From the UHGV virus genome UHGV-0086921: DNA of 18,433 bases. One strand, written 5' to 3'. Both the position numbers and the translations under genes were made by a program. Shown here piece by piece: positions 1,657 through 17,942 of the stretch (within the stretch, counting starts at the first letter, position 1; the number at the start of each line of letters is the position of its first letter). The notes beneath the pieces are model-generated. The model was given only the letters and a program-made list of their open reading frames with translations. It was not told the DNA's origin and did not search any database. Origin of the DNA: a virus.

Positions 1657-2977
1657 CTTCTATGTCCTCATCAGTGATAGAACCACCGATCCCAATCACA
1701 TCAGAAATGTTCCTGAGGTCGTTAAGCGCTGCTGCAGGCGTCATTCCGAGCTCACGAACGGCGGTACCGAGTGCGGTAACCACATTGTTCGCCATCGCTG
1801 CACGGTCCACGTCTGACATCTCCCAGAGCTTGTTAAACTCGAATGTAAAATCGTCAGGCAGTGGTTCACCGAACAGAGAGCGCCAGGAGATATCGAGCAG
1901 CCAGCGGATATGTCGGCGTAAGCGTCTCTCCTGCAGCGAGTTAACCCGGCTGTAGTAGTTTTCCAGATCGCCGTCGCCGGTGTTGAAACCTGCAGGGGAC
2001 TGCCCGAACAGACGGACGAGAGGAATTCCCGTCGCGCCGGAAACCTGCTCAGCAAAGCGCAGAAGGACATCAGCGATACCCGCAAACGTATAGCTGTGGG
2101 TTTCGAACTTATCCTTACCATCCATGATGGTCATGCCTTCGATGGTCTGGAACTGACGTATCATGTCCAGGTGCTTCATCAGCGCCTTTTCAAGGTCGCC
2201 TCCGGTAGCAAGAATCTTGCGCAGGTCTTCAATGCTGTAGGTCCGCAGATGCGCTTTGTGGATCAGCTGTGTGGTGCCGACGGTCGCAGTATCAAACGCC
2301 TCGATACGCTCGAAAATACGCTCCACGACAGACATCCCCCAGCCGTTTTCCGTCTGAGCCTGCTGGAAAGGAAGCGTATCGCCCTCCATGCGGATAACGC
2401 GGCTATGGTGGATCTTCCAGGGGGGAATCCCCTGCTGGTTCGTGATTACCTTGTAATATTTCGGTTTCCCAAAATCGGGACCGTAATCGGTAACGAGATC
2501 GTAATAACTCGGGTTAACCATCCAGCGGTCAAGGCTCATCACGCCCTTAAATTGCCCCTCTTTGATGCGATCCAGTTTAAGCGGGGAGGACATATCCTGC
2601 CCTTCAAGCAGGACCACCAGCACCGCGCCACCGTACAATCGTGACCATTTGAGGTTATCGTTAAGCCCATCCCATATAGCGAGCTCATCCCAGAAGGTTT
2701 CGAGCTCGCCCTTTTGTCCGGGCTTCAGCTTTGAGCTGATGTTAATCCCCTTGCGGGTCATATCATCGGCCATCGCATCCACACCGACACCAACGAGGAA
2801 CGATGAACGATACGCAAACTCCAGCATCACCCTGTTACGGCTGATGTACCCGGGCATGTACATTCCGCCCGTCTGTATGTTTCTGGTGTCGCTGCCAAGT
2901 TTGGCCGTGAAATTGTTGTACCCGTCAGCTGTCGCAACGGGCTTTTGTGCGCCGTTCTGGCGTTTCTTACGGGACAT
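1508..2977 (-). CDS. Portal protein
   Basis: About 490 aa ORF directly after the terminase large subunit, the conserved portal position. Preferred start is the internal ATG (MSRKKRQNG...) with a GGAG RBS, just after the TerL stop; the track ORF extends to 3010. Confidence 0.7.
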   Translation of the reverse strand: MSRKKRQNGAQKPVATADGYNNFTAKLGSDTRNIQTGGMYMPGYISRNRVMLEFAYRSSFLVGVGVDAMADDMTRKGINISSKLKPGQKGELETFWDELAIWDGLNDNLKWSRLYGGAVLVVLLEGQDMSSPLKLDRIKEGQFKGVMSLDRWMVNPSYYDLVTDYGPDFGKPKYYKVITNQQGIPPWKIHHSRVIRMEGDTLPFQQAQTENGWGMSVVERIFERIEAFDTATVGTTQLIHKAHLRTYSIEDLRKILATGGDLEKALMKHLDMIRQFQTIEGMTIMDGKDKFETHSYTFAGIADVLLRFAEQVSGATGIPLVRLFGQSPAGFNTGDGDLENYYSRVNSLQERRLRRHIRWLLDISWRSLFGEPLPDDFTFEFNKLWEMSDVDRAAMANNVVTALGTAVRELGMTPAAALNDLRNISDVIGIGGSITDEDIEDAKAQWQEDEPETIPPPSFGDPVSKKPVGDSKPDRADRRWYLRWFTGQR

Positions 2978-2978
2978 G

Positions 2979-4604
2979 TCACGCTCCGGCCAGTTTGGCC
3001 CAATTATCAAGAGAGGAATCCATCGGCGCGTAGTTAATCATCACGGCGTCAGCGAGGTTCGGCGACTTGGTGCCGTCAGGCTGTTTATCAACAACGATTT
3101 TCCCCACACCGTTAATGGAATAGGTCGGTTGCGACAGCTCGATGATGAGTTTGTCTTTGCTCGCCATGGCGCTGCTGATTGAGATAATTTCGTCCGGGTT
3201 GTAGGCCATTCCCTCAACCACGGCGCGATAGGTGTTCTGGAAAAGCTTGCGTAATTGCCACCAGCTCTGGGCCTTGGCGTTAGCAAAGAAGTCCTTGTTC
3301 AGGCGGGCGGCCTGTCCGTTGTCGCCGCGCACCGCTTCATCGTCCGGATCAAATACCGCGCCGCTACCACGAAACGGTGTGGCGAGTATTGACGGTCGGC
3401 GCGCTGCGTTACGCAGTTCGTTGATGGCGCGCGCATCGCCGCGAACGCCAGCACCCAGGCCGTCCTCGTCGAAGCGAAACTCTTCGAGGTTGTCCTGTTC
3501 GCAAAAGCCGAAGACCTTCTCAACAGACTGGTAAATGTCGCTGCCAACGCCGGACCATTCACGCACGTTCTCCAGAAGGAAGCCGTGACGGGTCGAAAAG
3601 GCGTTTTTGTCCCGGCCTTCGTCGGCGACGTCCATCGCGCCCAGTCGCTTGCCCGTTGGCTGAATACCAAGTTTGATATGCGCGTCGACGGCAGCCTGTA
3701 CCCAATCGGACGGGATCAGGACGCCTTCCGCAGATGCGCTGTAGTTCAGGTCAAGTTCCTGCGCCACCACCACCGGATTGTCGATTTTCTCGCACTCCCT
3801 GCGATACCACTCTTCATCCTTGCGCGGGTCATCTCGCCAGTGGAACGTGAATACTGGTATTTTTCCGCCGTGGCGCTTCTGCGCGAACGGGTTCGCCATG
3901 CCATTAACCGAGCTCAGGTCAATACGGCAACGGGTGGTTTGCGACAGCGCCGCATCAATCAACAGAGGACGCTGGAGGAATGCAGCTTCATCCACCAGGT
4001 AGAGCGTGGTACGGTCACCACGTCCGATATTGTCGCCAGCCTCGCCTTTGATAACCGCGCCAGTATCTGGAAACTCAACGCGCATATAAGGCGCATGCTT
4101 CTTCTCGTCCCACGAGCCACGAAACTCGATGGGCAGTGTTTCCACGAACTTTCGCGCCTTCCAGAACAGCGCCTTCGGGTCACCGGTGCTGTCGACGTAT
4201 TCCTCTTTACGGGAGCCGAAACCGATAACCATTTCTTTGTTGAAGAGGCAGAGCGAACAGGCCAGCCCGATCGCCGTCCAGCTGAGCCCCATTTCGCGGC
4301 TCTTTTCGGTGATGCCGTTCTCCAGTCGTTCGCGCCGCTCCATGATCCAGTGAATCCACTCTTCCTGTTTCGGGAACAGCAGAAAAGGGATGGTGACCGG
4401 CAGGCCATAATCGATGTTACGCGGGTCAGTAGTCATACCCCAGTCGATGATGAACTGTGCCGGGTTGGTGCGGTAAAACTGCTTTAGCGCTGGCAGCATT
4501 TCAGGGTTCTGGCGAATGCGCTGTAAGCGCTCCATCCGCCATTCAAAAACCATCTGGTAATCAGGGTTTCTGAAATCGAATTCAAACGGGAGAGGCATGA
4601 TCAC
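2979..4604 (-). CDS. Terminase large subunit
   Basis: 541 aa ORF between the small terminase and portal genes. It starts with GTG and overlaps the TerS stop by 4 nt (GTGA), indicating translational coupling. Size and position are typical of TerL (ATPase plus nuclease). Confidence 0.8.
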
Positions 4605-10777: not shown

Positions 10778-10956
10778 CTTGTTTTCCTCGCACGTTCTCT
10801 AAGCCACCGGATATCCCACAGGTGAGCCGTGTAGTTGAAGGTTTTTACGTCAGATTCTTTTGGGATTGGCTTGCGTTTATTTCTGGAGCGTTTCGTTGGA
10901 AGGTATTTGCAGTTTTCACAGATGATGTCGGTGATACTTCGTCGCTGTCGTCTCAT
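10774..10956 (-). CDS. ninE: NinE
   Basis: 60 aa from the internal ATG: [60 protein letters not shown], as in lambda NinE. ATGA overlap with the upstream methyltransferase stop. Confidence 0.7.
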
Positions 10957-11483
10957 GCCGCCCTCCTGACGCCCTGCCCGATCGCCATCAATGCCGCTTT
11001 GGATACGGTAGTAAACATCCGTCGAGGACTGATGAACGGTCGCCAAATCAGCAGCATGGAGCCTTTGCTGTTTCCCTTCTTCTCCAGCCCTGTCGATGGT
11101 TCGATAAAATTAATCCGTCCATCAGTGATAATGCGAACTTCGTCGACACTCTCCAGAGCCTTGCTGAACCATCCGACAGACATATCCTCTGGCACAAGCA
11201 TCACTACCGTCTGTCGCTGTTGTATGCACTGCTCAGCTGCTTTTTCCACCCACGGCCTGATATTGCTGTACGGTGGGTTATTCCAGATTGCACCGTGACT
11301 TACCCACTCAGAATTGAGCGCGTCGTCGGCCTCAGTTAGCCAGTGAGCGCACAGAGCATTTTTGTCGCTCGCTGCCGAATCCAGCCAGAATCCAAACTCA
11401 ATATCCAGTGCATCAAAAAGCCAGAGCGGCGTTTGCCAGCAGTCTCTAACTTCTTTTGGTGTTTCTGATTTATGCTTAATCAT
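10953..11483 (-). CDS. Phage DNA N6-adenine methyltransferase (Dam-type orphan MTase)
   Basis: 176 aa with the NPPY catalytic motif ([11 protein letters not shown]) and the N-terminal [12 protein letters not shown] pattern typical of the phage Dam family. Confidence 0.8.
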
Positions 11484-12007
11484 TCACCCCTCGCATATTG
11501 TCCGTGATATTTGTTGATAGCCTCACTGGCAACCAAACCAGCAAGCTCAAGATCTTCATAGAACCCAAAATGCAACCGGCCAAAATCTGTGCGCACTTGA
11601 ACGGCCCATTTATTTTTTTGCTTGTTCCATAAAACATTTTTTATTCCAGAACGGCTATTGCACTTAGTTTTCTGATTTCGGCTGTTTGCTATCCGGCTTG
11701 CCTCCCTAAGATTTTTTGGGGAATTGTCCAGCCTGTTTCCGTTAATATGGTCAATATTTTTCAATGGCATTCTTTTGTTGTGCAGCGCAAAAACAACTAC
11801 GTGAACAAACATCTGAATGCCTGCAAAACACACCTGTCTATACCCAGATCCATTTATCGATGTTTTAATTTCATCTCCGGCCCGGTGGCTGTGGTTGGGG
11901 TGTTTTAGCGAGTCCTTTTTGTATCTGACTGTATCTCCGTCTAAATACAGATAATCCTCAATAAGCCGATACCTATCTGACGCTGGCGTATTTGATTTGA
12001 TAGTCAT
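11480..12007 (-). CDS. HNH endonuclease with AP2-like DNA-binding domain (homing-endonuclease type)
   Basis: 176 aa from the internal ATG (MTIKSNTPASDRYRL...); HNH motif IDHINGNRLDNSPKNLREASRIANSRN followed by an AP2-like segment (NKWAVQVRTDFGRLHFGFYEDLELAGLVASEAINKYHG). ATGA overlap with the ninB stop. Confidence 0.75.
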   Translation of the reverse strand: MTIKSNTPASDRYRLIEDYLYLDGDTVRYKKDSLKHPNHSHRAGDEIKTSINGSGYRQVCFAGIQMFVHVVVFALHNKRMPLKNIDHINGNRLDNSPKNLREASRIANSRNQKTKCNSRSGIKNVLWNKQKNKWAVQVRTDFGRLHFGFYEDLELAGLVASEAINKYHGQYARGE

Positions 12008-12444
12008 GCAGCCCGATCTCCCCATCGCGCTTTCCATTCGAGAGCCAGTCGCGCTTCGTCTGACCACTTAACGCCACGCTCTGTACCGAATGCCTGTATA
12101 AGCTCTAATAGCTCCGCAAATTCGCTTACACGCATCCTGCTGGTTGACTGGCCTATTACCACAAAGCCATTCCCGGCAAGGTTAGGAACAACATCCTGCT
12201 GCTTTAATGCTGCGGTAAACACACACTTCCAGCTTTCTGCATCCAGCCAGCGCCCATGCCATTCAACCTGACGAGAGACGTCACCAAGGCAAGCCCAAAG
12301 CTTTCGATTCTGGTCTAAGCTGCGGTTGCGTTCCTGAATGGTTACTACGATTGGTTTGGTTGGGTCTGGAAGAATTTGCTGTACCGCGTGAATAGCGTTT
12401 TGCTGATGTGCTGGAGATCGAATTTCAAAGGTTAGTTTTTTCAT
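12004..12444 (-). CDS. ninB: NinB (Orf recombination mediator)
   Basis: 146 aa from MKKLTFEIRSPAHQQNAIHAVQQILPDPTKPIVVTIQERNRSLDQNRKLWACLGDVSRQVEWHGRWLDAESWK..., essentially lambda NinB as I recall it. Confidence 0.9.
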   Translation of the reverse strand: MKKLTFEIRSPAHQQNAIHAVQQILPDPTKPIVVTIQERNRSLDQNRKLWACLGDVSRQVEWHGRWLDAESWKCVFTAALKQQDVVPNLAGNGFVVIGQSTSRMRVSEFAELLELIQAFGTERGVKWSDEARLALEWKARWGDRAA

Positions 12445-12481
12445 GACTTCCCTCTCCCCCAAATAAAAAGGCCTGCGATTA

Positions 12482-12511
12482 CCAGCAGGCCTGTTATTAG
12501 CTCAGTGATGT
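12482..12511 (-). terminator. tR2-like intrinsic terminator between the replication and nin modules
   Basis: Minus strand: 7-8 bp perfect stem (GGCCTGC / GCAGGCC) with an 8 nt loop, followed directly by TTTTTATTTGG. Same position as tR2 in lambda. Confidence 0.6.
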
Positions 12512-12520
12512 AGATGGTCA

Positions 12521-13957
12521 TCAGAATCCCCCTTTCTTCTTGGACTGCGGTTCCTTGCGTTCACGGCGGCGAATTTCAGCAGACTGTTGGTCTGTGTCAT
12601 AAATAGCGCCATTTGCCTGAATGCAATACACCGTACCGGTATTGCCATGACGATTGAGACGAAGGATTAGTTCGGTTTCACCAGGTGGAACACTGTCATC
12701 AAAAGCGCCTTCACGATGGATCCCAACCCAATAATCGCAATCCTGTTCAATCTGCCCTGTATCTCGTGAGTCACTTGGTAATGGGCGTTTATTGGTTCGG
12801 CTTTCCAGTGCGCGGTTAAGCTGCGTCAGAAGCACAACAACGCAATCAAGCTCTTTGGCAAGGTTCTTCAGTCCTTTGGTGATCATGCCGTAAGCAAGGT
12901 CGTTGCGATCGGCCTTCTCAGCGGTCATTAGTGTCAGGTAATCGACCAGAATCATGCCAACACATCCTTTTTCTCGCTTGATTCGACGGCTTTCGCTGAC
13001 GATTTGAGCCAGAGATAATCCCGGCGTGTCGTCGATGTAAAGCATGTCGATTTCACTCAAGCGATTAGCTGTTTCGATCGCCCTGTTGAAGGCACCATCG
13101 TAATCACCCTGATAGCCGTCATCAGCGTCATTTGTCGCCGGAAGGTAAAAAATATTCGGGTTAACACCAGACTTCTGCCCTACCAGTTTTTCCAGTATCT
13201 GATCACCTGGCATTTCAAGGCTGAACATCAAAGCGGGCTTTTTCTCATGCACTGCGCAATTGATTGCCATCTGGCTGTATAGCGTCGTTTTCCCCATCTT
13301 AGGGCGAGCGCCAATGACAAACAGAGAGCCTTTCACCAGACCTTTCGGTGACAGCATCCTGTCCAGCGATGGGATCCCTGTGCTCATTCCCCGTTGTTCG
13401 CCTGATGGGTCAAATCGCTTCTCAAGGTCGCTAACCCAGTCTTCCATGACCTCACCAAATGAACGAAGGCCGCGACGCGATCCGGTTTTTGCATGGTCTG
13501 TCAGTTGCGTGAAAATCGCCTGAATAGCTTCGTACTTCTGCGTTGCAGTCATTCCGTTGCGGGAATAGAGCAATTCCGTCGCTTCAGTCATGCGGTTGAT
13601 GGCGTAGCGTTCCATTGCGGTTTCACGAACCTGCATTGCATAGGCAACGATGTTTGCTGCGCTTGGCGTGTTCTTTGCGATCTCAGCGATATAAGCAAAA
13701 CCGCCAACAGACGCCGTTAACGATTTACGCTCCAGTTCATCGAAAAGCGTCAGGCCATCTACTGGCTTTTGCTCCCGGTGCATTCTGGTTATTTCTTCGA
13801 AAAGGATTTTGTGTGGTCGGCCGTAAAATGAATCAGGCTTCAGCATCGCCAGAACTTTCCGGACGCGCTCACTGCTGTCATCATCCAGAAGCAATCCACC
13901 AATCACCGCCTGCTCTGCCTCGATGCTATGGGGCGGCGCATAAAAATTATCGGTCAT
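12521..13957 (-). CDS. Replicative DNA helicase, DnaB family (P22 gp12-type)
   Basis: About 478 aa with Walker A GARPKMGKT, Walker B MILVDYL, and the DnaB-like N-terminal domain (IEAEQAVIGGLLLD). Preferred start MTDNFYAPP; overlaps the upstream gene stop. Confidence 0.9.
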   Translation of the reverse strand: MTDNFYAPPHSIEAEQAVIGGLLLDDDSSERVRKVLAMLKPDSFYGRPHKILFEEITRMHREQKPVDGLTLFDELERKSLTASVGGFAYIAEIAKNTPSAANIVAYAMQVRETAMERYAINRMTEATELLYSRNGMTATQKYEAIQAIFTQLTDHAKTGSRRGLRSFGEVMEDWVSDLEKRFDPSGEQRGMSTGIPSLDRMLSPKGLVKGSLFVIGARPKMGKTTLYSQMAINCAVHEKKPALMFSLEMPGDQILEKLVGQKSGVNPNIFYLPATNDADDGYQGDYDGAFNRAIETANRLSEIDMLYIDDTPGLSLAQIVSESRRIKREKGCVGMILVDYLTLMTAEKADRNDLAYGMITKGLKNLAKELDCVVVLLTQLNRALESRTNKRPLPSDSRDTGQIEQDCDYWVGIHREGAFDDSVPPGETELILRLNRHGNTGTVYCIQANGAIYDTDQQSAEIRRRERKEPQSKKKGGF

Positions 13958-15735: not shown

Positions 15736-16383
15736 ATGAAAACGATGCATGAAATTATCGGGGAAAGGATCAAGTCCCTTAGAGAAGCTAAAGGACTTAG
15801 CCAGGCTCAATTGGCCAAGCTTTGCGGCTGGGCTGCGCCTTCACGCCTGGGGAACTACGAGTTAGGAACAAGAAAGGTTAGCGCGGATGACGCGCTGGTT
15901 CTTGGGGCGGCACTCGGCGTATCTCCGGCAAAAATAATGTTTGGCGAGGATTCAGACGCCGTATTTCGCCAATATGAATACCCGTTATTTTCTTCAGTGC
16001 AGGCCGGGCCATTTTCGGAGGTGGGAAGCTACACAGCCAGCGATGCAAAGGCATGGGTCCCAACGACCACAAAAGCCAGCGAAAAAGCTTTCTGGCTTGA
16101 GGTGAAGGGGCATTCAATGACGGCGCCTCAGGGGGTTCGTCCAAGTTTTCCGGAAGGCATGCTGATACTCGTTGATCCGGCTGAGCCGGTAGAGTCTGGG
16201 GATTTCTGCGTGGCTTCTGCAAATGGTGATTCAGAGGCAACGTTCAAGAAGTATGAGAAGGATGCAGGGGTTAGTTACCTGGTACCTTTAAACCCGGCAT
16301 ATAGAACACTGGATTGCGACCATAGCTGCCGCATCATAGGCAAGGTAGTTAAGGCGCAGTGGCCTGAAGAGACGTTTGGCTGA
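15736..16383 (+). CDS. cI: CI prophage repressor (LexA-like S24 autopeptidase family)
   Basis: 215 aa with an N-terminal HTH ([12 protein letters not shown]...) and C-terminal S24 features (VKGHSMTAP... Ser nucleophile, and a later Lys in IGKVVK). An in-frame alternative start at 15745 has an AAGGG RBS. Confidence 0.9.
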
Positions 16384-16533
16384 TCGGCAAGGTGTTCTGG
16401 TCGGCGCATAGCTGGTGAAAAAATTATTTAATGCGGTGTATTGGCTGATTGTAACCCCATGTAACATCTTGCCGTCACCATTTCGGTGGTTAGATTTTTA
16501 ATAAAAAAAAACAAATGTATAGCAAGGTTTTTT

Positions 16534-17013
16534 ATGGATAAAATTAATTACCCACCCCTGTTTGAGCCAGGGTTCCATGACATGGATGAAGCTGGATTAA
16601 AATCGTATTGTGTCGATTGCTTTCCTTCATCATCCAGGCGAGGCATGCTATACTGTAATTTTATACAGCTACTCGAATCTATTCGAGAATTATCTGCTCA
16701 ATATGGCTGTTTTACAGAAATATGGGTTGATGGTTCATACACCACGTCTAAACCAGAGCCTGATGATATTGATATTTTGTTGGTATGTGACTATAGCAAT
16801 ATAAACTCAATACCTGTCATGCTTCGGGGCCGCGTCGATAATTTGCTTGACCGAAACTACATCAAACAAAACTACAAAATTGATGTCCTACTACTCATGA
16901 AGAATTTAGATGACCCTAACTATGATTATGAGTACTGGCGTAGCTACTGGCGCGGTTGGTTTGGTTTTGATCGCAGTGAAAACCCGAAAGGGTTAGTGAG
17001 GATTTTTTTATGA
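16534..17013 (+). CDS. Predicted minimal nucleotidyltransferase-fold protein (Pol-beta superfamily-like), cargo gene A
   Basis: 159 aa from MDKINYPPLF... (the track ORF starts at an upstream GTG in an A/T run, less likely). Motif EIWVDGSYTTSKPEPDDIDILLV fits the NTase GS-x(9-13)-DxD signature. AAGG RBS; AT-rich codon usage unlike the surrounding phage genes. Confidence 0.55.
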   Translation: MDKINYPPLFEPGFHDMDEAGLKSYCVDCFPSSSRRGMLYCNFIQLLESIRELSAQYGCFTEIWVDGSYTTSKPEPDDIDILLVCDYSNINSIPVMLRGRVDNLLDRNYIKQNYKIDVLLLMKNLDDPNYDYEYWRSYWRGWFGFDRSENPKGLVRIFL

Positions 17014-17942
17014 ATGATAAATCAATGTTTAAAAATTGCGATAAACGCATTGATTTCATTCAAAAAGAAGTCGATGCAATGAAGCAAAACAAAACCAGGT
17101 CCTTTGCTGACATGCTTCTTTATCGCTCCATGGATTCTCATCTGAGCGATTTGAAGGCCGAAAAATTAAAGCAAGATAGTCGGCACCCACTTATCGATTT
17201 TTTTGAGCTGCGGCTGAAAGGCTCTGAGGTTGACTTTGGCTCTATTCCTTTAGAGCTGCTTGGGGCTATTTCAACAAATCTTGCAGCGCTAATACAAAGA
17301 GCAACACACAAAATTGCCTCAGGCAAGGACTCAAAAAAAGTTCCCTACGACGTGAAAAGCTCCTTAAACCTCAGGCTGGCTGATTTATCCCCTGGGTCTA
17401 CAAAATTGGGCGTCACCTTCTCTACAGGAATAGCAGAATTAGTAGAAACAGTACCCAGCAAGGCTGTAAAAGGCATATTCGATTTGTTGTTAAGCGATGA
17501 CGACAACAACTTCATGAATCACGTCGCTGAAATTGGATACAATTCCACTGTAAGCCTTAAGAGAATCGTAGAGGAATGCGATAAACACAACTTAACATTT
17601 GATGCAAGTTGGACCGGTCCATTTAGTAATGGCACCAAGGTGGCAACTATTGACTCCAATAAAATTAAGTACTTGGTGAGTAGACTTACATCAACCATTT
17701 CATCCCCTCCCATTACTGAAACGGTTACAGGCGAACTGGTCGTTCTATCCAAATATGGGAAGCTGGAGCTTGATGTTGGTGGTGAACATTTAAAGGCTTC
17801 CTATCCGATTGAAATGCTAGATTTAATACAAAAAAAACACAAGGTCGGACAGATTGTTTCTCTTTTAGTGGAGACTACTGAGATTCACAATGATCGCATA
17901 GGTCTGTACCGTAAAAACCATCTTGTTAAATCGGTTCTTTAA
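17010..17942 (+). CDS. Hypothetical protein (310 aa), cargo gene B, translationally coupled to gene A
   Basis: Its start overlaps the gene A stop (ATGA at 17010-17013). No transmembrane segments are apparent and I recognise no family. AT-rich. Followed by a strong terminator. Confidence 0.6.
   Translation: MNDKSMFKNCDKRIDFIQKEVDAMKQNKTRSFADMLLYRSMDSHLSDLKAEKLKQDSRHPLIDFFELRLKGSEVDFGSIPLELLGAISTNLAALIQRATHKIASGKDSKKVPYDVKSSLNLRLADLSPGSTKLGVTFSTGIAELVETVPSKAVKGIFDLLLSDDDNNFMNHVAEIGYNSTVSLKRIVEECDKHNLTFDASWTGPFSNGTKVATIDSNKIKYLVSRLTSTISSPPITETVTGELVVLSKYGKLELDVGGEHLKASYPIEMLDLIQKKHKVGQIVSLLVETTEIHNDRIGLYRKNHLVKSVL

Follow-up and report, generated by a model that had tools for sequence, protein, structure and literature searches.

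The window analysed here is the whole 18,433-nucleotide stretch of the virus genome UHGV-0086921. Its minus strand carries a gene for an HNH endonuclease with an AP2-like domain (HNH in the following), flanked by the recombination-mediator gene ninB and the phage adenine methyltransferase gene dam. Comparison of this locus with phage records, Escherichia coli genomes and IMG/VR loci places the nuclease gene within the beginning of dam, and we regard it as probably belonging to a homing endonuclease gene (HEG) cassette that is, or recently was, active and is specific for the 5' end of phage dam genes.

The junction between ninB and dam

The genes and segments that make up the junction are the following; open reading frames are abbreviated as ORF.

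11480..12007, minus strand: HNH-AP2 endonuclease ORF, 175 amino acids, stop codon included (ORF list, sequence, Pfam HNH_3, PHROG 99)
12004..12444, minus strand: ninB/orf recombination mediator, its stop overlapping the captured start codon (Pfam NinB, E 1e-54; 441 nt in the HK140 annotation)
10953..11483, minus strand: phage dam, N6-adenine methyltransferase, the invaded gene, intact with 176 amino acids (PF05869, E 8e-66)
11981..12007, minus strand: captured leader, the first 9 HNH codons (MTIKSNTPA), the same 27 nt with which dam opens in HNH-less alleles
11445..11980, minus strand: cassette stretch of 536 bp that is absent from empty sites (two-piece phage matches, junction reading)
11445..11483, minus strand: cassette-borne replacement dam 5' end, ATG plus 12 codons, standing for MTIKSNTPAHDK of the empty allele (junction reading)

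The HNH ORF extends from an ATG at 12007-12005 to a TGA at 11482-11480. An earlier note on this DNA had located it between ninB and the methyltransferase gene with ATGA overlaps on both sides, and the junction sequences agree with this. The ninB stop (12006-12004) and the HNH start share a 4-nt ATGA (coding strand GCATGAC, 12004-12007), and the HNH stop shares another with the dam ATG at 11483-11481 (coding strand GAATGAT, 11480-11483). The dam product is a full-length match to PF05869 (model positions 1-167 of 169 covered), and the dam body of the window is 97-99% identical to HNH-less alleles.

The empty site of phage HK140 consists of ...GGGCTGCATGACTATCAAATCAAATACGCCAGCG, CACGACAAG and GACTGCTGG in succession; its junction reads ...GGGCTGC ATGA CTATCAAATCAAATACGCCAGCG CACGACAAG GACTGCTGGCAAACGCC, and dam there begins MTIKSNTPAHDKDCWQTP. 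In the window, the 536-bp cassette occupies the place of 9 nt, CACGACAAG, so that the occupied allele is 527 bp longer than the empty one, and likeness to the empty allele picks up again only at GACTGCTGG. The cassette contains HNH codons 10-175, the stop codon and the new dam 5' end, which differs from the empty allele at 18 (or, by another count, 22) of 40 positions. The GC content is 42% in the HNH part, 30% in the dam 5' patch and 50-53% in the flanks. As we read these junctions, the insertion point is within dam, after codon 9, and not between genes. The captured leader brings dam's original start codon, its Shine-Dalgarno region and its ATGA coupling to ninB; on this reading the upstream ATGA is dam's own original start, now that of the nuclease, and the downstream ATGA is the cassette's. 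The ninB end with the HNH start and the HNH end with the dam start form only a weak direct repeat (13 of 500 shuffles reach the observed score), and a target-site duplication is therefore not called.

The variant dam end is itself rare. A 46-nt sequence of it occurs in only 40 of 5426 complete E. coli genomes, 34 of which have HNH DNA (32 with an annotated HNH coding sequence). In many HNH-positive genomes the dam gene called by the Prokaryotic Genome Annotation Pipeline is 3 nt short (2574-3101 in locus L003, 713-1240 in loci L009-L012), its start being the ATT after the ATG; in the scar allele L005 the same pipeline starts dam at the ATG. The short call is probably a start-site mis-call caused by the replaced 5' end.

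Domains and fold of the nuclease

Three regions were delimited in the HNH protein.

11810..11968, minus strand: N-terminal beta-rich region, residues about 14-66, with the family core from RLIEDYLYLDG (family alignment, 1U3E profile match, model)
11678..11809, minus strand: HNH_3 (beta-beta-alpha-metal) nuclease motif, residues 67-110, with D86, H87, N99 and N108 (Pfam; alignment)
11492..11650, minus strand: AP2-fold DNA-binding domain, residues about 120-172, three strands and a helix (profile, Foldseek, Pfam matches of relatives)

The description of the product as an HNH nuclease with an AP2-like domain, also made in the earlier note, is borne out. Pfam HNH_3 (PF13392) matches residues 67-110 with 42.6 bits against a cutoff of 24.8 (E 4.6e-11), and PHROG 99 (phrog_99, HNH endonuclease) matches with E 7e-43. 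In an alignment of 39 homologues, the family-invariant residues H69, D86, H87, N99 and N108 are all kept, so no catalytic residue of the HNH motif has been lost. Profile comparison aligns D86, H87, N99 and N108 with the DH..N..N motif of I-HmuI (..VVDHKDGNKDNNLSTNLRWVTQKINVEN..). From the HNH_3 motif, metal-dependent nicking or cleavage of DNA is predicted. The family profile matches I-HmuI (1U3E) with E 1e-7 over the N-terminal part, half to two-thirds; here the N-terminal region of the protein aligns with the N-terminal DNA-binding part of I-HmuI, the 1U3E match covering profile positions 32-105, and the AlphaFold model has strands at residues 20-67.

Pfam AP2 gave no match to the whole protein or to its isolated C-terminal 58 residues, and a single-sequence phmmer search of the protein against PDB returned noise only; therefore, the AP2 assignment rests on profile and structure evidence. 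PF00847 (Pfam AP2) matches 13 of the 39 aligned family members, and the family profile matches plant AP2 domains at residues about 108-161 (7WQ5, WRI1, E 1e-6; 7ET4, TEM1, E 6e-4). The AlphaFold model has a predicted local distance difference test (pLDDT) score of 89.2, and its residues 125-171 form a three-strand sheet with a long helix. Foldseek places this modelled C-terminal domain on the TEM1 AP2 domain (7ET4) with a root-mean-square deviation of 1.5 A over 48 columns, and its top whole-chain match is I-HmuI 1U3E, with probability 1.00. Confidence is low at residues 1-10 (pLDDT 69), which are the captured leader. PADLOC returned only a weak match to its generic 'HEase' model (E 7e-4, 17.6 bits) and did not place the protein in a defence system. 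An identical protein is already public as 'HNH endonuclease [Escherichia coli]' on 217 contigs, and among the deposits from E. coli, E. albertii and Salmonella the protein is named 'HNH endonuclease' or 'AP2 domain protein'.

Distribution, movement and loss of the cassette

The earlier note proposed comparing the nin regions of related phages for presence or absence of the gene and for scars, and such a comparison reveals empty, occupied and scarred alleles. With the 1601-bp ninB-HNH-dam segment as query, 421 phage records match at 90-99% identity, none of them covering more than 67%. The best phage matches come in two pieces spanning 1074 rather than 1601 bp, the middle of about 527 bp being missing. 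The HNH gene is present in none of these 421 related records, HNH DNA has no blastn match in 50,697 phage records, and no phage protein is more than 60% identical to the HNH protein. The HNH-less relatives include the isolated phages HK140, 434 and SfI. A scan of the GTDB representative genomes for HNH yielded one distant match only.

Among the 5426 complete E. coli genomes, HNH is found in 34, at 43 places, and ninB-dam empty-junction sequences in about 1540-1865. Occupied and empty dam sites occur together in several genomes, in different prophages of one chromosome. Strain E89 (NZ_CP121157.1) has both kinds of site (3290304-3291031 and 1531877-1532058), as have the Z1323CEC strains. In some genomes two prophages are occupied: E. 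coli Br_190_kylling carries two different lambdoid prophages that are both HNH-positive, and the HNH block (2664 bp at 99.7%) is their most similar segment.

Two HNH alleles, at most 10 nt apart, were distinguished in E. coli: allele A in the window, L003 and L004, and allele B in L009-L012. Each has been met with three upstream genes, namely ninB type 1, ninB type 2 and a YbcN-type gene (GTG start), and in these backgrounds (A/G)TGACTATC is the exact point from which the sequence resembles the window. For the YbcN background, 25 genomes contain a synthetic empty junction intact. In IMG/VR, 17 further close loci were found (L014-L030), and the 14 that were scored add another ninB variant. The candidate reading of the RefSeq entry 'HNH endonuclease signature motif containing protein' as frameshifted copies proved wrong, for the entry is full-length allele B. 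The differences between the two alleles are mostly amino-acid changes clustered in the AP2 domain and C-terminus (codons 146-175, about 11483-11572), namely H146Y, F149L, G157C, R173K, G174V and E175V; the numbers are small, and the clustering could reflect relaxed selection or a shift in specificity.

A second lineage was found as a 78%-identical HNH (P0003, locus L002) between a DUF1367 gene and a diverged dam, which shares 51% amino-acid and 57% nucleotide identity with the dam of the window. Among 28 IMG/VR loci with this second dam type, 24 are empty, starting ATGACCGACAAATCAAATAC... (MTDKSNTPPEDKDRW). At the four occupied ones and L002, HNH opens with ATGACCGACAAATC followed by TGAACAAAAG (MTDKS, then EQKYRLIED), and dam starts MIKHKSQTPIESRDCW. 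The second-lineage HNH thus begins with its own local dam leader, ATGACCGACAAATC, and again brings a replacement end of the MIKHKS type. This replacement patch is identical between the lineages at 38 of 48 nt, compared with 75% for HNH and 57% for the whole dam. Within the second lineage, identity is 99.2-100% among the HNH copies but 74-92% among the dam bodies next to them. The three loci open to this test, L002, L047 and L067, each have a counterpart without HNH whose dam body is 98-99% identical (for L069 the figure is 96.8%); in the case of L002 the upstream gene of that counterpart matches as well. A near-identical HNH beside diverged dam genes is the signature that would be expected of recent site-specific spread independent of the host gene. 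This lineage has no match in the phage records or the E. coli genomes. Relatives at 40-50% identity lie at unrelated phage loci, beside thioredoxin, among tail genes and between connector and scaffold, and they often show 4-nt overlaps on both sides.

The dN/dS ratio (nonsynonymous to synonymous substitution rates) between the two HNH lineages is 0.094, and 20 of the 23 complete copies retrieved, a non-random sample, are intact. Meanwhile, three different microhomology deletion scars were recognized. In L006 a 14-codon remnant is left after deletion between CTATCAA repeats, in L005 the ninB end is fused to the last HNH codons, and in L008 the ninB-ATGA is directly joined to the variant dam end. 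Frameshifts recur at one site of the gene:

11613..11619, minus strand: A7 homopolymer run at codon ~130, recurrent frameshift site (A6 in L007, L028 and the 10-member P0002 cluster)

L027 has a shortened run as well, the deletions in these copies falling in the A6 and A7 runs; frameshifts here remove the AP2 domain and leave the HNH core. In addition, L024 has a nonsense codon and P0006 has internal deletions. The HNH ORFs of L007 (E. coli 503440) and L028 contain IS100, an insertion sequence of the IS21 family, 43-49 nt from the start, with a 7-bp overlap of HNH sequence on both sides and the A7-to-A6 frameshift besides. By this pattern of substitution and decay, the HNH protein is under selection and individual copies are expendable.

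The gene order on the minus strand of the window is that of a lambdoid early-right operon: an O-like gene, a DnaB-type helicase, a tR2-like terminator, ninB, HNH, dam, ninE and ninF, followed by a Roi-like antirepressor, YbcO, RusA and Q. The plus strand carries a LexA-like cI at 15736-16383. A promoter scan of 10900-12700 found no promoter-like site; an autonomous HNH transcription unit was therefore rejected, and HNH is taken to be transcribed together with the nin genes. Between the DnaB-like helicase and ninB there is a strong intrinsic-terminator-like hairpin (12469-12492, minus strand; 8 pairs, 6 of them GC, then a T-run), at the position of lambda tR2, which puts HNH in the part of the operon that depends on N antitermination.

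Other insertions were seen in this region. The nin regions of the Br_190_kylling prophages contain other HNH genes (3302-3868 and 6331-6942 in L041, 3116-3727 in L042), which encode 203 amino acids between the helicase and ninB and 188 amino acids between ninF and ninG, and nuclease genes seem to insert preferentially in the lambdoid nin region. The otherwise HNH-less phage Lambda_ev058 (LR597651.1, 38652-40436) has a 'mobile element protein' annotated between dam and ninB; the ninB-dam junction attracts other insertions too. On the plus strand, directly downstream of the cI-like repressor, a DUF6932 protein is encoded at 16486-17013 (Pfam E 2e-24), and its gene is overlapped by a 310-amino-acid ORF at 17010-17942 with no Pfam match. 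The two genes occupy the position of lambda rexAB after the repressor, by which they are a candidate moron or defence pair expressed in the lysogen.

A predicted homing cassette and its alternatives

We propose that the cassette homes into phage dam genes, probably in the following way. By sequence comparison, the nuclease ORF is read from the start and first 9 codons of dam and so inherits dam's translational coupling to ninB, and the cassette end, with its ATGA-coupled start and 13 replacement codons, keeps dam intact. In a lysogen HNH would be silent, since cI controls PR, from which the nin region is transcribed; upon induction or in a mixed infection the nuclease would be translated at a low level, coupled to ninB. 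The AP2 and N-terminal modules may then recognise the 5' end of dam where it is uninterrupted, in a lambdoid genome without HNH (at or near AAATACGCCAGCGCACGACAAGGACTGCTGG), and the HNH site would nick or cut the bound empty allele. I-HmuI and enzymes of its type nick one strand. Recombinational repair from the HNH-positive genome would copy the cassette into the empty dam, with the dam body as one homology arm and, as the other, the short dam leader, extended by the upstream gene where this is homologous. An occupied allele would be immune, its target being split and its dam 5' end diverged. Over time copies would decay or be deleted, as in the usual HEG life cycle. The linkage of HNH to dam would be due to dam being the insertion target. 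The suggestion in the earlier note that the nuclease targets competing phages is compatible with such homing, since homing in the form of marker exclusion amounts to that targeting.

Several points weigh against homing. The target site is read from the insertion point alone, and cleavage, nicking and homing are predictions. The E. coli dam bodies are 97-99% identical whatever their HNH status, too uniform to show a co-conversion tract, and those of the second lineage are mosaics that share no more than two sites close to the junction, with no co-conversion tract seen. Occupancy is low, at about 2% of sites, and the coexistence of HNH-positive and empty sites in one chromosome needs the assumption of prophage repression. 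Where the upstream gene differs, the upstream homology arm is only 14-27 nt long. Ordinary lambdoid module shuffling could lie behind some of the background diversity, and the intactness of about 85% of the sampled copies would fit a beneficial gene too.

That last point, with 20 of 23 complete copies intact, and the strong purifying selection expressed in the low dN/dS ratio (0.094) would also suit a domesticated, co-expressed nin gene that serves the phage and whose tight coupling is selected co-regulation. Such a gene might aid recombination with NinB/Orf, RusA or YbcO, or degrade host or competitor DNA; HNH is located among recombination genes, and other phages have fusions of Orf-family proteins with HNH domains (PMC4118853). 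We consider domestication unlikely. HNH is missing at about 98% of ninB-dam junctions that are nearly identical otherwise, and none of the related isolated phages in the collection has it; three independent clean deletions stand beside the frameshift, nonsense and insertion-sequence inactivations. The Orf-HNH fusions are of a different family (DUF968, zinc-finger HNH), and the weak PADLOC match is to a homing endonuclease model.

The earlier note had deduced domestication, as opposed to selfishness, from the tight coupling, and this deduction does not survive the comparisons. Presence of the gene is polymorphic and rare: none of the 421 phage records has it, and 34 of the 5426 E. coli genomes do. 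The upstream ATGA is the captured dam start, taken over by an insertion 27 nt into dam and not evolved for HNH. The same HNH stands behind unrelated upstream genes and beside diverged dam alleles, and is recurrently deleted or inactivated; its relatives at unrelated phage loci carry overlaps on both sides as well. Of the 12 free-standing endonuclease genes of T4, 5 overlap the upstream ORF, with UAAUGA at mobE/nrdA (Edgell, Gibb & Belfort 2010, PMC2988022). Since start/stop overlaps are thus found in proven mobile genes, tight coupling is no argument for domestication. A role in recombination or packaging had been suggested too; given the HNH-less isolated phages HK140, 434 and SfI, a packaging role or a required recombination function is unlikely. 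The gene lies in the nin region and not beside terminase genes, which separates it from packaging HNH proteins of the HK97 gp74 type, whose genes adjoin the terminase genes and which are required for cleavage at cos; several kb with Q and the lysis genes lie between HNH and the ORFs at the far end of the window, which are taken for packaging genes from position and size only.

A second alternative sees in the gene a passive passenger, a former homing element that no longer cuts and has been spread by ordinary lambdoid mosaic recombination alone. The dam bodies, which give no co-conversion signal, the low occupancy, the empty sites coexisting with HNH in one genome and the degradation of several copies agree with it, and lambdoid nin regions are well-known mosaics. 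Against it, most copies have an intact ORF and the catalytic residues do not vary. HNH is 99-100% identical beside dam genes that are 74-92% identical, the breakpoints fall within a few nucleotides on both sides, and two dam lineages are occupied at the same site. Such a pattern is hard to obtain without a site-specific stimulus, and we regard passive spread alone as quite unlikely.

In both lineages HNH and dam are linked and overlap by an ATGA, and HNH elements are associated with phage methylase genes elsewhere (PMC11855218). It is very unlikely, in our estimate, that HNH reads the methylation state set by the adjacent Dam, cutting unmethylated rival or host DNA and sparing its own; if this were true, HNH and dam would form a weapon akin to a minimal restriction-modification system, carried by phages and spread by a cassette that rewires the start codon of its partner. 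A functional HNH-Dam pair of this kind, a minimal restriction-modification or addiction-like module in which Dam methylation protects self and unmethylated rivals are cut, is highly improbable, as dam is without HNH at the vast majority of loci, relatives of the family occur near tail, capsid and thioredoxin genes, at loci that lack a methylase, the combination of an I-HmuI-like part with AP2 is the architecture of homing enzymes with long sites, and the dam linkage is fully explained by dam being the insertion target.

A homing cassette specific for dam finds its closest counterparts among known HEGs. Nucleases combining HNH and AP2 are a described HEG family (Magnani, Sjolander & Hake 2004, as cited in PMC10448857), and 'IPA-HNH' HEGs were treated by Barth et al. 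2023 (PMC10448857). Like members of the HNH-AP2 family, the present gene is phage-borne and codes for an N-terminal HNH_3-type nuclease with a C-terminal AP2 fold in about 160-175 residues; the sporadic distribution and the insertion into or beside conserved genes are shared as well. It differs in that its own AP2 domain is too diverged for the Pfam model and that the insertion is inside the 5' coding end of the target and not intergenic. To our knowledge, no member of the HNH-AP2 subfamily has a mapped target. With I-HmuI (1U3E) of Bacillus phage SPO1, the closest solved structure by sequence profile and fold, the protein shares the N-terminal beta-sheet DNA-binding region and the DH...N...N motif; however, the gene of I-HmuI sits in a group I intron and its C-terminal domain is a helix-turn-helix, whereas the present gene is intronless and its C-terminal domain AP2-like.

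The 'intronless homing' seg and mob genes of T4 resemble the cassette in their presence or absence among close relatives, the lack of an own promoter, the start placed over the upstream stop and the marker exclusion of rival genomes that would be expected. In contrast to the T4 genes, which are intergenic and often cut hundreds of bp away, the cassette resides in a temperate lambdoid prophage, within the target ORF, with a borrowed start and leader and a substitute 5' end for the target. HNH genes in coding sequence without an intron or intein have been described in the mobE-split nrdA of Aeromonas phage Aeh1 (PMC3045599) and in actinophage methylase genes (PMC11855218). In these cases, as here, an HNH-type HEG lies within a coding sequence and the invaded gene stays functional, and in ShiLan the target is likewise a phage DNA methylase gene. 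However, Aeh1 NrdA consists of two polypeptides that reassemble, and ShiLan has an in-frame internal loop with an out-of-frame (hidden) HNH, whereas in the present case the target is whole, its first 12-13 codons being replaced by a cassette copy and the old codons having become the N-terminus of the nuclease. A limited literature search found no description of this arrangement or of the element, and no free-standing HEG in lambdoid phages.

The protein family and intronless homing are already known, so the finding as first stated is ordinary and not surprising in kind, and the overlapping start and stop codons serve as a caution that such overlaps are no evidence of domestication. On present evidence the gene would be an uncharacterised member of a known selfish nuclease family with an unusual, well-documented insertion design: entry at the first codons of the target, use of the target's start and leader for the nuclease, and a spare 5' end that saves the target. 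Start-codon capture combined with a surrogate 5' end may be a route by which HEGs in general invade coding sequence with neither intron nor intein, which we hold to be more likely than the methylation-reading HNH-dam weapon. Most characterised homing cases come from T4-like lytic phages, and the cassette would provide a clean natural example in temperate lambdoid phages. Occupied, empty and scarred alleles are available in cultivable E. coli strains and classic phages (HK140, 434), which makes target mapping and homing crosses feasible.

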